This document shows positions 53,094-56,195 of a stretch of DNA of 64,000 bases, piece after piece. Source of the DNA: Alphaproteobacteria bacterium. Lineage in GTDB: Bacteria > Pseudomonadota > Alphaproteobacteria > UBA828. The stretch spans positions 576,001 to 640,000 of the forward strand of contig CBDCQT010000013.1 in assembly GCA_965220745.1 (NCBI GenBank), in the 5' to 3' direction. How positions within the stretch are numbered: position 1 is the stretch's first letter; the number at the start of each line of letters is the position of its first letter. The notes beneath the pieces were generated by a model, which worked only from the letters and a program-made list of their open reading frames with translations, ran no database searches and had not been told where the DNA came from. The translations under genes were made by a program, and so were the position numbers.

Positions 53094-53227
53094 ACCGGCC
53101 CGCACGACGCGGTGTATCGCCGCCGCCGGGCCGCGCGCACTATAGCGCCCGGCTCCGGGCACGGCCAATTCTTCGCATCAGCGCTTGGCGCTGGGGGCAA
53201 GCACTTAGGCCAAGTCCTGGTAGTCGG

Positions 53228-54118
53228 TCACTTTGAAATCGCCCGCTTGCGATAGGTGGCCGGGCGATTCGGCTTGGGCGCCGCCTCGTCCACCAGCCGC
53301 ACGATGTCTTCGATGTCCCACAGCCGATCCGTGACGCCAGCGGCCATCGCGGGGCTGATCCCGTCGAGGCTCTTATGCCGGCGGCAGAAGTTGTAGAACA
53401 TGAAATGCAGCGCGACGCTGTGCACGTGGTTCTCGATCTTCTTTGAGAACGCATTGGTCAGCCGCGTGAAGCGACGCATCGACATCCGCATGGTGAGGTT
53501 GTTCCGCTCGGCGTAGCTGGTCGAGACGTGCGCGGGATCGGGGCTGCCCTCGATCCGCCACTTACGGATGCCGGCGCATTCTGCCGGGCTGTAGCGCTTC
53601 TCTGACGACACGCCGGTTTCTCCATCGTACAGCTTCATCAGCATGGCGTAATCGACATCGCCACCGAATGCGCCCTCTACAGCCTCCAGATGCGCCTTGT
53701 GGCCGTCACTGGTCAGTTGCACTCGGATTGCCAGCCGGCCGCGCAGATCGTCCACGAAGTCGATAGCGGTTGCGCCGGAGCGATCCCCAACCCGCCAAGA
53801 CGGCACCAGCTTGGTCTCAGCGTCGATGGCTGTCCACACCCAAACGTCACCAGCCTCAGTCGGCGCGGCCCTCGCGCGCGCCACGTTTTTGTCCTTCGCA
53901 TAGATGAAGGACCAGGCCTCATCGACTTGGATGCGGCGGCATGGCAGGTCGCGGAGCGCCTGGTCTTGGTACGCCGCGCAAGCCTTGCCGGCATCGACCA
54001 TGAGCTTCATGACCGTGTTCTTGCTCACGCCCGCCGTGCGGGCCGTGGACCGAATGCTCATTCCTTCCACGAGGCAGCAGACGATCAGGGTGCGGGTCTT
54101 GGTGTCGAGCTTGTTCAT
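53228..54118 (-). CDS. IS1-family DDE transposase
   Basis: N-terminal HTH ([17 protein letters not shown]); DE.[19 protein letters not shown].AFSK; stop codon lies inside the terminal repeat. Confidence 0.9.
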   Translation of the reverse strand: [296 protein letters not shown]

Positions 54119-54184
54119 GCCGACAATCTAAGGGACCGAGCGAGTCAAGCATTTTTGGTCAGTTTGCATTTTGGCGCAAGTTTG

Positions 54185-54213
54185 TTGACAGACGATGCTC
54201 GGGAAGGTATGAG
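54185..54213 (+). promoter_or_regulatory. Putative sigma70 promoter of the cargo operon
   Basis: TTGACA-N17-TATGAG just upstream of ATG 54223. Confidence 0.55.
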
Positions 54214-54222
54214 AGGCGCACG

Positions 54223-55365
54223 ATGCAGGAACACACAAGACCCGGCGAGTTGATCGAAGAGCTTCTGAATGGCAGAGGTTGGACCAAGCGCAGCTTGGCA
54301 ATCGTTCTCGAAAAGGGCGAGTCGACGGTCAACAAGATCATCTCCGGGAAAAGCACGGTGACCACCGAAGTTGCTTTGGCGCTGGAGGATGTATTCGGCG
54401 TCGATGCGGAGAGATTCCTTGAACTTCAAAGAAAATATGACCTCGCAGTGGCGCGTATTTCCGCAAAACCAGACCGCAGCCGCGCGACGCGCGCGGCGCT
54501 TTTCGGAGACCTGCCAATTTCAGCTATGGTCAAACGCGGATGGCTCGGCACCGCTGACTCAAAGAACCTAACCGAAGTATCGGCAGAACTTGTAAAATTC
54601 TTTGGCGTGTCGTCTTTGGATGAAATTGAAATCCTGCCCCATGCGGCCCGAAAGACCGCTGTTAGCTCGGACCCAACACCTGCCCAACTGGCATGGCTCT
54701 ACCGGGTGAGAGCGATCGCGAGAGAGCAGATTGTCGGAAAGTTCTCGAAACGCGGGCTGGATAAAGCAATCGGCCTCCTTCATACCCTTACCGTAGCCCC
54801 AGAAGAGGCTCGAAAAGTGCCCCGCGTTTTAGCCGAAGCCGGGGTGAGGTTAGTAATTGTTGAGACTCTTCCTGCGGCAAAAATCGACGGTGTTTGCTTC
54901 TGGCTTACGGCCCGCGCTCCCGTAGTTGGGCTTTCGATGCGGCATGATCGCATCGATAATTTTTGGTTTGTGCTGCGACATGAGTTGGAGCACGTTCGCT
55001 TGGGGCACGGGCGCACTGAAATCATGCTGGATACTGAGCTGGAAGGCGAGCGCGCCGGAACTGACTCCGCTATCGCAGAGGAAGAGCGTGCCGCAAATTC
55101 AGCAGCGCAAGATTTCTGTGTCCCTAAACAGGAAATGGACGCCTTCATTGCACGTAAGGCTCCGCTCTTCTCCGAACGAGACCTGCGGGGCTTTGCAAAG
55201 ATCGTCAGAGTGCATCCGGGGATTGTTGCTGGTCAGTTGCAGCATCTGACTGGCCGCTTTGACCGTTTTCGGAATCACCTCGTCAAAGTCCGGTCGCATG
55301 TCGTACCCGGCGCAGCAGTCGATGGGTGGGGTGATGTCTACCCTATCGGCACACAGGAGGACTGA
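54223..55365 (+). CDS. XRE/HigA-like HTH fused to ImmA/IrrE-type Zn metallopeptidase
   Basis: PGELIEELL..RGW....LA N-terminal HTH; KIDG, R.DRIDNFWFVLRHELEH (HExxH), E..AN. Confidence 0.88.
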   Translation: MQEHTRPGELIEELLNGRGWTKRSLAIVLEKGESTVNKIISGKSTVTTEVALALEDVFGVDAERFLELQRKYDLAVARISAKPDRSRATRAALFGDLPISAMVKRGWLGTADSKNLTEVSAELVKFFGVSSLDEIEILPHAARKTAVSSDPTPAQLAWLYRVRAIAREQIVGKFSKRGLDKAIGLLHTLTVAPEEARKVPRVLAEAGVRLVIVETLPAAKIDGVCFWLTARAPVVGLSMRHDRIDNFWFVLRHELEHVRLGHGRTEIMLDTELEGERAGTDSAIAEEERAANSAAQDFCVPKQEMDAFIARKAPLFSERDLRGFAKIVRVHPGIVAGQLQHLTGRFDRFRNHLVKVRSHVVPGAAVDGWGDVYPIGTQED

Positions 55366-55859
55366 TGTCCCGAATTGCTGAAATGCAGAGGTTTATCCGG
55401 TACTGGAAAGACACCACCGGCGAAACCGAGGTTGACATGGTGGAGGTGGCGAGACTCGCCTTGAAGATGGGCTGGAGTGCTCCGCCGGAAATCTCTCGTG
55501 AAGAACGGCTCGCGAAACAGTTCAAGCGCGCTGCGCGCCAAGATATCCGCCACGACAGAAAGACAGGCCGTGCATACCGAGGTTATCATGCGGTACCTAA
55601 GGCAGACGACGGTGGACGGCAGGCAAGCTTCGCGTTCATCGACATTGACGATCCAAGCACCAGGCCCGACCGTTTCCGCAAAGCGTGCGTTCTTCGTCGC
55701 GAGCAAACCGTTGATGATATGACCCAATTGAGACTTGACCAACTTCACTGGAACGATAACCGTCCCGAAGAGCAGCGTGTGGATGTCCTTCCTGCCGACC
55801 TTGAAATGGACGTTGAAATCCGCTTGGCGTCAATGGACGACGAGGACGTTGCGGCCTAG
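55365..55859 (+). CDS. Hypothetical protein (IS cargo), translationally coupled to the HTH-peptidase
   Basis: AGGAGG RBS, TGATG overlap, 164 aa, acidic C-terminus. Confidence 0.8.
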   Translation: MSRIAEMQRFIRYWKDTTGETEVDMVEVARLALKMGWSAPPEISREERLAKQFKRAARQDIRHDRKTGRAYRGYHAVPKADDGGRQASFAFIDIDDPSTRPDRFRKACVLRREQTVDDMTQLRLDQLHWNDNRPEEQRVDVLPADLEMDVEIRLASMDDEDVAA

Positions 55860-56080
55860 TCGTCCTTTCTCCAGCGTGCTTGTGCAGCTATCGAAGCAAT
55901 CCGTGATCGCTTCTCTGGCGTTAGGGCTTCGGCGCGTGCCGGGCCGCCTTTTAGGCCACCCTTGCGTTGGCCCTTAGCCTTTTCCGGCCCTTTCCCTTTG
56001 TCCTCAACCTCGCCCGTCGCCACGTCCACAACGCGCTTGGCGAGCTGGTTGGTGTCGCGTGGGCGCTTGGCTCCACCCAT
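55856..56080 (-). CDS. Small basic IS-associated protein with KGG motif
   Basis: KRPRD.NQLAK.VVD.ATGE...RKGGLKGG.ARA..LTPE.R..IA..AA.ARW; same strand as the transposase. Confidence 0.75.
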   Translation of the reverse strand: MGGAKRPRDTNQLAKRVVDVATGEVEDKGKGPEKAKGQRKGGLKGGPARAEALTPEKRSRIASIAAQARWRKDD

Positions 56081-56195
56081 GCCATGAATTTGGCACGCGT
56101 TCCGCACGCATGCCAGCATGGCGAGGCTCCGACTTCAGACTGACCCACTACCCAAGTCCTTGACTCGGGGCCCTGTCATGGTTTCTAGTTTACTC

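Follow-up and report, generated by a model that had tools for sequence, protein, structure and literature searches.

Members of the IS1 family of insertion sequences (IS) generate target duplications of 8-9 bp and are bounded by terminal inverted repeats (TIRs) of about 20-25 bp that start GGT..TG. Long IS1-family members are already listed in ISfinder, and an ISMhu11 subgroup is listed there with a single open reading frame (ORF) for the transposase, no zinc finger and sizes up to about 4.6 kb; the name ISMhu11 was found in no paper of the searchable open literature. An IS that carries passenger genes has been called a transporter IS (tIS; Siguier et al. 2009, as quoted in PMC9330008 and PMC11891212). 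The element described here lies in a stretch of 64,000 nucleotides, referred to as the window, from an alphaproteobacterium of the GTDB lineage UBA828 (assembly GCA_965220745.1, contig CBDCQT010000013.1, positions 576,001 to 640,000, forward strand). Window positions 53219-56152, a segment of 2,934 bp, very probably constitute one transposable unit, a tIS belonging to a single-ORF branch of IS1 that lacks the zinc finger.

The passenger genes of this element have their nearest described counterpart in PD-lambda-2 of Escherichia coli. According to Vassallo et al. 2022 (PMC9519451), that system comprises a HigB-like component A, a component B in which an Xre-type domain is fused to a peptidase, and a component C related to a P4 antitoxin; B alone is toxic and is rescued by A, and C is needed for defence.

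Element boundaries and empty sites

The two TIR arms are 23 nt long and complementary at 19/23 positions (83%); read inward, they begin GGTAGTC and GGTAGTG. With up to three mismatches permitted, the window contains a single occurrence of each, and shuffled sequences lead one to expect none. The octamer CAAGTCCT adjoins both outer ends as a perfect 8-bp target-site duplication (TSD). Inside the arms, the last codons of the transposase overlap the left arm, and the small ORF at the other end (56119..55856), whose product contains RKGGLKGG, lies 10 nt inside the right arm (Table 1). G+C is 0.55-0.63 within the element and 0.67-0.70 in its flanks, which carry a tRNA-Pro(GGG) gene on the left (53017-53093, minus strand) and metZ on the right (TIGR01325, 557.5 bits against a cutoff of 510). 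An earlier note on this DNA, made from its letters alone, had described 23-nt TIRs starting GGTAGT, the flanking duplication, and a KGG-motif small ORF and an uninterrupted transposase on the minus strand with a two-gene cargo between them on the plus strand; all of these features are seen. The octamer CAAGTCCT is present four times in the window against 0.91 expected. The two extra copies, at 23953 and 25913 (minus strand), were considered as a possible second element and rejected, being chance occurrences in coding DNA without TIRs.

The same note had proposed looking for a single CAAGTCCT between tRNA-Pro and metZ in related genomes or reads, and such sites were found in three genomes of the same genus and in contigs of three public sequencing runs. 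Forty relatives were compared with window positions 52300-57100. In G006, G008 and G011 (same genus) the left and right flank matches, 92-96% identical, abut with an overlap of 8-9 bases, and both flanks are continuous around one CAAGTCCT; the octamer was present in 3 of the 11 loci examined, all so arranged. In contigs of the runs X6 and X9, position 53209 is followed immediately by 56152, nine letters being common to both sides, and this is precisely the empty site; in a contig of X5 the flanks meet across the site with 26 diverged left-flank letters between them. The occupied arrangement is present in a 3,098-nt contig of the public run X1 that spans 53125-56222 without differences at a depth of 10.2. 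A further X1 contig (depth 9.95, with a shorter side of 43 letters) joins 53167 to 56179 with unknown letters between; it could be the empty-site allele of a second strain in the sample, or DNA of a relative.

Copies of the element were also found in two of these runs. In X5, positions 53219-56095 are represented at about 92% identity, with 222 differences and 13 gaps, in a contig of 4,668 nt; 1,313 nt of DNA foreign to the window precede its match at 53219, so that the X5 copy demonstrably continues into other DNA. In X6 the matches, at about 95% identity, set in exactly at 53219 and run exactly to 56152. Runs whose own tRNA-Pro/metZ site is empty therefore contain the element together with the same cargo. 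The outer repeats are the true ends of the element. X9 is an RNA library, and its contigs cover parts of the element and carry no information on transcription.

Table 1. Features of the element and their positions in the window
Feature	Position	Strand	Remarks
TSD, left copy	53211..53218		CAAGTCCT; single at the empty sites of G006, G008 and G011 and in the joining contigs of X6 and X9
TIR by the transposase 3' end	53219..53241		GGTAGTCGGTCACTTTGAAATCG; contigs of other runs start their match exactly at 53219
DDE transposase	53228..54118	-	single uninterrupted ORF of 296 amino acids (aa), N-terminal helix-turn-helix (HTH), no zinc finger
Divergent control region between transposase and cargo gene A	54119..54222		104 bp
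Cargo gene A	54223..55365	+	fusion of Xre-type HTH and M78 (ImmA/IrrE) metallopeptidase, 380 aa
Cargo gene B	55365..55859	+	164 aa, family-less; start overlaps the gene A stop by one base
Small basic protein	55856..56080	-	likely start Met14, giving 74 aa; longest ORF, to 56119, 87 aa
TIR at the small-ORF end	56130..56152		reverse complement GGTAGTGGGTCAGTCTGAAGTCG; X6 contig match ends exactly at 56152
TSD, right copy	56153..56160		CAAGTCCT

The wider lineage and the question of mobility

One genome per species was scanned with a transposase profile built from nine relatives (A1). This gave 566 pattern matches, 540 of which were confirmed by tblastn, and the best 80 loci were kept. Together with the window and nine loci from relatives they make up the 90 loci considered here; L023 was left out, having no transposase, and L017 and L046 are the same place. 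The TIR at the near end was sought anywhere downstream of the transposase (restricting the search to 150 bp would retain 43/90 elements), and a TSD of 8 or 9 bp was accepted. A TIR pair (consensus GGTAGTGNNTCANTTTGAAAT) together with an exact duplication was recovered in 63 of the 90 loci, and the duplication was 8 bp in all 63. Homologous transposases thus carry the same terminal repeats, an association that the earlier note had named for checking. Among the remaining 27 loci, the far end was absent from the available DNA in 11, the near end was absent in one and neither end was found in two; the other 13 have both ends present, and an exact duplication is absent. No strong consensus emerged among the duplications of the 63 elements.

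The 63 elements range in size from 1,723 to 4,362 bp, and their G+C is below that of the flanks in 59/63. None consists of the transposase only, and the segment upstream of the transposase measures at least 835 bp in each. That the DNA between the small ORF and the transposase is variable, as the earlier note had supposed of its cargo slot, is borne out by these elements. The slot is not unique: 21/63 elements also hold more than 100 bp downstream of the transposase, so that cargo can occupy more than one place, and in many elements further DNA separates the small ORF from the end. The core of the lineage is made up of the transposase and, at the opposite end, the gene for a small basic protein; the cassettes lying between them are exchangeable. 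In a profile search of 1.84 billion representative proteins, E<=1e-30 was reached by 3,579 clusters and E<=1e-10 by 15,797, the latter set being one that will take in other IS1 branches.

Two side observations concern unusual forms within the lineage. In G018 (L023 4217-4773, contig C1) there is a 557-bp derivative without a transposase, which has the TIRs of the family, its own duplication AGTCGAGG and only the start of the small ORF; its structure suggests a MITE-like element (miniature inverted-repeat transposable element) mobilised in trans. Furthermore, proteins of 450-670 aa (P0287, P0317, P0319, P0327 and about 30 more) have the transposase domain at the C-terminus behind 180-400 other residues and may represent fusions in which a member of the family has acquired some further N-terminal domain.

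Whether the window copy is still mobile is a separate matter from whether it once moved, and a genuine past insertion that has since become a fixed and immobile relic, its ends or expression decayed and its cargo alone under selection, is a serious although less favoured possibility. The element is single-copy in its own 4.82-Mb assembly, whether sought by DNA, by protein or by TIR pattern, which tells against present activity. Its TIR pair, with four mismatches in 23 nt, matches at 17/21 over the consensus span, the lowest class among the 63, and is one of the two most divergent. The -10-like box upstream of its small ORF reads CCAAATT, whereas relatives have CCATATT. An empty site is compatible with insertion here or with precise loss elsewhere. 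Set against decay, the transposase ORF is intact with all A1-invariant residues, including D66, D138 and E204, and the duplication is perfect. Copies at 92-95% identity with the same cargo occur in other runs, and that of X5 lies in other DNA while the X5 site is empty. Imperfect TIRs are also not peculiar to the window, since pairs matching at 17-19/21 are found in 21/63 elements that still have exact duplications.

The cargo genes of the window

Cargo gene A matches the Pfam families HTH_3 and Peptidase_M78, and its best-scoring system profile in PADLOC is PD-Lambda-2_B (E 2.9e-43, 146.7 bits, profile positions 85-395 of 402). Its residues 1-78 score 54 bits with the NCBIfam HigA antitoxin model (cutoff 47.7), and the HExxH residues H253, E254 and H257 are invariant in 16 homologues. 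Matches to the RmrA models of PADLOC are weak (E 6.3e-4 to 0.024). For gene B, Pfam, PADLOC and PHROGs gave no match at the thresholds applied, and its sole NCBIfam row scores 13.5 bits against a cutoff of 437. It has 150 homologous clusters, the nearest 96% identical; wherever a source supplies a name for them, it is 'hypothetical' or 'uncharacterized'. The AlphaFold2 model of gene B has a predicted local distance difference test (pLDDT) value of 91.9; no recognisable fold emerged from the PDB, where the best Foldseek match has an E of 0.62, and the best match in the wide VIA-align comparison (Z 5.1) covers only a helical hairpin at residues 100-164.

Gene B occupies the position of component C, but a comparison with PD-Lambda-2_C gave no PADLOC match at E<=0.1, and 0/73 family members match at E<=0.01; a distant homology is conceivable. 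Component A is absent: tblastn with five HigB-like ORFs from related elements found nothing in the window element. Only 104 bp separate the start of gene A from that of the transposase, and no RmrT-like gene lies upstream of gene A in this gap. Since component A is absent and gene B has no PD-Lambda-2_C match, the window module is, judging by its genes, related to PD-lambda-2 and not a member of it. There is about an even chance that the cassette is an abortive-infection or toxin-antitoxin-like module, of benefit to the host or acting by addiction.

Cargo across the lineage

The Pfam scan took in 42 elements with 128 ORFs (70 aa or longer) and a further 20 elements with 77 ORFs. PADLOC was applied at E<=1e-5 to 62 elements with 111 ORFs (120 aa or longer), after two extended transposase ORFs had been left out of 113. 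At least one PADLOC match was obtained in 31/63 elements, the window included. The cargo classes are given in Table 2. In the 11 elements with both genes, the HigB-like gene lies upstream of the PD-Lambda-2_B-like gene. Genes A and B of the window are nearest to those of L054 (72% and 72%), followed by L032 (68% and 66%). The HigB-less form was considered as a one-off deletion, and this was rejected, as 5/16 elements with a PD-Lambda-2_B-like gene are without the HigB-like gene.

Table 2. Cargo classes among the 63 elements with a TIR pair and an exact duplication
Cargo	Elements	Remarks
PD-Lambda-2_B-like with HigB-like gene	11/63	
PD-Lambda-2_B-like without HigB-like gene	5/63	window, L032, L037, L054, L103
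RosmerTA-like	7/63	strong RmrA; six with both RmrT and RmrA
SocA/Panacea antitoxin domain	3/63	
nSTAND1 NTPase	4/63	
P63C	3/63	L096 with DNA methylase too
ClpP-like SDH protease	4/63	
DNA methylase fused to HNH	1/63	
RhuM/PDC-S05	1/63	
Fic/SoFic	2/63	
dCTP-deaminase-like	1/63	
AAA_21/HEC-04 ATPase	1/63	
Abi_2/PD-T4-5	1/63	
PDC-M06B	1/63	
HARE-HTH	1/63	
DUF4760 with Sel1	1/63	
Nested second IS	1/63	
No family match	15/63	

On the plasmid NZ_CP041717.1 of Acidiphilium multivorum (L108), genes for a RES-domain toxin and an MbcA/ParS/Xre antitoxin (4383-5221) lie directly downstream of an 'IS1 family transposase' of this lineage, that is, in the downstream cargo position.

Several limits tell against a functional reading of this cargo. 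The ORFs were called by a greedy longest-ORF heuristic in DNA of high G+C, and a PADLOC match to one component is no proof that the defence system functions. The preponderance of defence and toxin-antitoxin (TA) genes is an observation and not a measured enrichment. As a PD-lambda-2 system the window module would be incomplete, with A absent and C without a detectable relationship. As B alone was toxic in the published PD-lambda-2 system and was rescued by A, a B-like gene without A needs another explanation.

Exchange of cassettes between elements

Among the 16 elements with a PD-Lambda-2_B-like gene, the five HigB-less modules group together as a single branch in the cargo tree (support 100/99; recovered in 100% of bootstrap trees), and the same five need at least four changes on the transposase tree. 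Because the two trees disagree, they indicate that cargo and transposase have different histories and that cassettes are swapped between elements. The comparison of the window with L015, from a genome of the same genus, points in the same direction. DNA identity is 87% exactly from the transposase ATG to the end of the element (89% for the transposase protein) and 84% over the first 145 bp at the other side, which comprise the TIR together with the small gene's N-terminal half; in the interior nothing is alignable except 119 bp. As the match is limited to these ends, the breakpoints can be placed in the small-gene linker and where the transposase gene begins.

The trees also bear on whether genes A and B are passengers at all. 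Xre/ImmA-type pairs regulate other mobile elements, and A and B could in principle be the element's own ImmR/ImmA-like repressor-protease switch, acting on the transposase under stress. Gene A is divergent from the transposase across a shared control region of 104 bp, and it combines an Xre HTH with an intact M78 motif. This explanation is nevertheless improbable. Gene A is present in only 16/63 elements, with seven more having a RosmerTA-type Xre-peptidase, and the other 40/63 hold unrelated cargo, or none that can be recognised, and yet have exact duplications. The incongruence of the cargo and transposase trees argues against it as well, and the nearest profile of gene A is a component of an experimentally selected anti-phage system (PMC9519451).

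Placement of the transposase in the IS1 family

The earlier note had assigned the transposase to IS1, a placement upheld by several lines of comparison. The Pfam family PF03400 (DDE_Tnp_IS1) scores 28.9 bits against a cutoff of 24.1, and Pfam gives HTH signals at the N-terminus. In an hhalign comparison of A1 with InsB of E. coli IS1A, a probability of 84.5% was obtained (E 6.9e-6, 118 columns). The alignment pairs DEaWSF with DEqWgy and TSDGH with mTDGw, and includes the partner of iERhNLnlRqhlaRlgRkslsFSKsvElH; as it contains DE..W, TDG and ERxNLxxR..FSK, all three catalytic motifs are covered. D66, D138 and E204 are invariant in A1, and the window transposase keeps every A1-invariant residue. 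The end of IS1A, GGTAATGACTCC, resembles ends of the family such as GGTAGTGACTCA, and homologues on plasmids are annotated as 'IS1 family transposase'. A zinc finger is absent, since the N-terminus has no CxxC pair and C47 is the sole invariant cysteine in A1. The canonical IS1 layout, with InsA and a frameshift to InsAB', is not present in the window element, the transposase being a single uninterrupted ORF. By these comparisons the transposase is a distant single-ORF relative of IS1 without a zinc finger. The single ORF, the missing zinc finger and the size are compatible with the ISMhu11 group, which the earlier note had named.

The match to PF03400 is confined to 36 residues (200-235), and the NCBIfam IS1 model (NF033558; residues 6-147) gives 59.4 bits, under its cutoff of 100, beside weaker IS481, IS6 and IS630 rows. 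Both results detract from the assignment and make the family link a distant one. From them, and from the lack of InsA, frameshift and zinc finger, it is conceivable that the element belongs to another family, e.g., IS1595 or an unclassified one, with the likeness to IS1 amounting to a shared DDE fold. This is very improbable, however: Pfam, NCBIfam and PHROGs all rank IS1 first among the transposase families, and no model for IS1595 gave a score. The alignment to InsB by hhalign spans the three catalytic motifs and the FSK segment, the terminal 11-12 nt resemble those of IS1A, and a duplication of 8 bp fits IS1.

The small basic protein

A homologue of the small protein was detected in 61/63 elements (tblastn, E<=0.01), and the remaining two, L061 and L099, gave partial or composition-sensitive matches. 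Its gene lies on the transposase strand in all elements but L073. Across 41 genomes, 10 of the 14 strong matches to the small protein (E<=1e-12) lie less than 3 kb from a transposase match. On this distribution the small protein is to be regarded as part of the core of the element and not as cargo. Its real start is likely Met14 (MGGAKRPRD...), which was chosen for its conservation across relatives, and the CCATATT-like box mentioned above stands 7-9 nt upstream of the start in relatives. The protein family numbers 3,154 clusters at E<=0.001, has no Pfam family, and goes by the names 'hypothetical protein' or 'histone H1'. The predicted structure consists of three helices (pLDDT 76.8; predicted template modelling score, pTM, 0.37), and Foldseek found no match to it in the PDB (best E 7.4). 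The small ORF was also considered as an analogue of InsA and rejected at the sequence level, with an hhalign probability of 0.15%.

The N-terminal half of the protein appears to vary together with the transposase and the ends. In a comparison of 1,711 pairs of elements, the identity of the transposase is correlated with that of the N-terminal half (Spearman 0.63) and not with that of the C-terminal half (0.02). TIR positions 8-9 read 'GG' with the motif RPRD in 22/25 cases and 'TC' with RPAD in 25/30. Because the protein is kept in nearly all elements and its N-terminal half co-varies with transposase and TIR, it could be an accessory or regulatory DNA-binding factor of transposition, an assignment that is tentative and that we rate at somewhat below an even chance. 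Two points detract from it, namely the weak fold model with its low pTM and the fact that both patterns of co-variation rest largely on two clades, so that shared ancestry could explain them.

The C-terminal motif of the small protein, GG.ARA..L.PE.RSEIA..AA.ARW, was also encountered elsewhere. It occurs inside open frames of 358-381 aa (G008:C6:635912-636001, G019:C205:16583-16672 and G021:C49:5331-5474), in a RhuM-family cargo ORF (L050, 334-1611 in element coordinates), and at the N-terminus of phrog_2384, a profile of a phage protein family with 338 residues. Judging from these occurrences, the motif behaves like a portable module on proteins of mobile elements.

The control region and the extent of the mobile unit

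Ahead of the ATG of the transposase, a TIR-like sequence AAACTGACC is present in most of the 63 elements, followed by ATGCTTGAC, 17-18 nt, (C)ATAT, 7-10 nt and the ATG; an ATGCTT/AAGCAT palindrome is often present as well. In the window, ATGCTTGAC is at 54152..54144 (minus strand) and the TIR-like sequence GGTCAGTTTG at 54157-54166. On the plus strand, TTGACA-N17-TATGAG (54185-54213) ends 9 nt before the cargo ATG. A scan of 54119-54222 with a strict sigma-70 consensus found no promoter; the boxes given here are weaker matches read by eye, with their conservation in relatives as support. They look like promoters for nearly leaderless mRNAs.

The internal TIR-like sequence could be a site at which the transposase binds for autoregulation, or the relic of an ancestral end. 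This third TIR-like sequence abuts the transposase promoter in the window and, more clearly, in L027 (about 5968-5990) and L039 (about 1565-1587), and together with the near end it would bound about 940 bp, which is as long as a plain IS1. Neither of the two elements picked up by the scan (L027 and L039) showed a duplication at the inner site. The supposition that only such a plain IS of about 0.94 kb is mobile, the outer repeats being chance and the cargo resident or part of a tRNA-linked island, could draw on this sequence and on the nearby tRNA gene, but is extremely improbable: the empty sites lack the entire 2,934 bp, matches in foreign contigs start or stop precisely at the outer ends, exact 8-bp duplications adjoin the outer TIRs in 63 relatives and were found at the inner site in none, no integrase is found among the ORFs of the element, and the insertion lies 118 bp upstream of the tRNA-Pro 5' end and not in the tRNA 3' end.

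The insertion site

Positions 56188-56266, upstream of metZ, hold an Alphaproteobacteria SAM (S-adenosylmethionine) riboswitch, RF00521 (71.5 bits; gathering score 36). The right end of the element is 36 bp, and the end of the duplication 28 bp, upstream of this aptamer. The final T of the right duplication is shared with a TTGACT hexamer at 56160-56165. Because of this overlap and of the closeness of the riboswitch, the insertion may be at or within the metZ promoter.

In two further genomes of the same genus, the spacer between tRNA-Pro and metZ contains about 2 kb of different DNA. That of G005 (L110, C4:23250-25650) has an ORF of 598 aa with DruA-like, DDE_Tnp_1_assoc and DDE_Tnp_1 matches, and that of G013 (L111, C6:73800-76000) has an ORF with a weak IS66 match. 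From these annotations the spacer seems to be targeted repeatedly by unrelated insertion sequences.

Proposed mechanism and significance

Based on the results of this study, the following course of events can be proposed for the tIS in the window. Both ends (GGTAGTG...TCA.TTTGAA) would be recognised by the DDE transposase, which inserted all 2,934 bp of the element into CAAGTCCT, between tRNA-Pro and the SAM-riboswitch leader of metZ. A staggered cut of 8 bp in the target would have given rise to the duplication; the outcome is read from the anatomy and the empty sites, and the chemistry is presumed from the family. The cassettes would be exchanged by recombination, with breakpoints in the small-gene linker and at the transposase start as in the comparison of the window with L015. 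The passenger would be a translationally coupled pair, A and B, forming a two-gene relative of PD-lambda-2, and would most likely act as an addiction or abortive-infection module that pays for the retention of the element. The peptidase-HTH protein would repress the operon and control its 164-aa partner. The N-terminal half of the small protein, to go by the co-variation, would be matched to the transposase and the ends.

A more comprehensive picture can be drawn, which is doubtful when all its parts are taken together. The lineage would be a dedicated and very widespread shuttle for single defence or TA cassettes; the small protein would be a two-part transposition cofactor, its N-terminal half matched to transposase and TIR and its C-terminal GG-ARA...RSEIA..AA.ARW tail a generic nucleic-acid-binding part found on further proteins of mobile elements too; new cassettes would be installed by recombination in the small-gene linker and at the promoter of the transposase; and the HigB-less module would be a self-contained and as yet undescribed system of defence or addiction.

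An obligatory small protein, a cargo bias towards defence and TA genes and the swapping of cassettes were found undescribed in the open literature searched, a search that lay outside subscription papers and ISfinder/TnPedia. All three may be new at the level of the lineage. With a filled and an empty site on record, the window element offers a clean natural case of an IS moving passenger genes. Its relatives number thousands, and at 1.7-4.4 kb they appear to be among the smallest vehicles by which compact defence and TA cassettes pass between Alphaproteobacteria and beyond. Public annotation labels the transposase gene only. The lineage could serve as a catalogue for finding new small defence systems, as 15/63 cargoes have no family match, and it supplies a two-gene variant of PD-lambda-2 that can be tested. 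The uncharacterised small protein may be a new accessory factor of transposition.

Comparison with known systems

Among the systems to which the cargo can be compared, RosmerTA (RmrT/RmrA, as modelled in PADLOC) shares the architecture of gene A, RmrA likewise being a fusion of Xre HTH and M78 peptidase. The window differs in that gene A matches RmrA weakly (best E 6.3e-4) and has no RmrT-like gene upstream. The likeness to PD-lambda-2 of E. coli (Vassallo et al. 2022; PMC9519451) is closer and consists in the HigA-like Xre HTH, the C-terminal peptidase fused to it, and a downstream gene in the third position. The HigB-like A, however, is missing in the window and in four related elements, and the 164-aa product of gene B does not match PD-Lambda-2_C.

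With IS1 of E. coli (IS1A), the window element has in common an InsB-homologous DDE core, in which D, D, E and ERxNLxxR...FSK are aligned, short TIRs with ends starting GGTA(A/G)TGACTC, and a target duplication, which is 8 bp in the window element and of the 8-9 bp type in IS1. IS1A measures 768 bp, whereas the window element extends over 2.9 kb with passenger genes. IS1A is expressed through InsA and the InsAB' frameshift, in contrast to the window element, which has neither and encodes a single ORF of 296 aa with its own HTH. The small protein of the window is unrelated to InsA and sits at the opposite end.

The window element also agrees with the transporter IS as a class (Siguier et al. 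2009, as quoted in PMC9330008 and PMC11891212). The empty sites lack the whole unit, a copy at 92% identity with the same cargo lies elsewhere in X5, and the cargo differs among the 63 elements; the element is of IS size and holds its passenger genes within its own TIRs. The passenger-carrying IS is an established category, and the window element belongs to this known kind.

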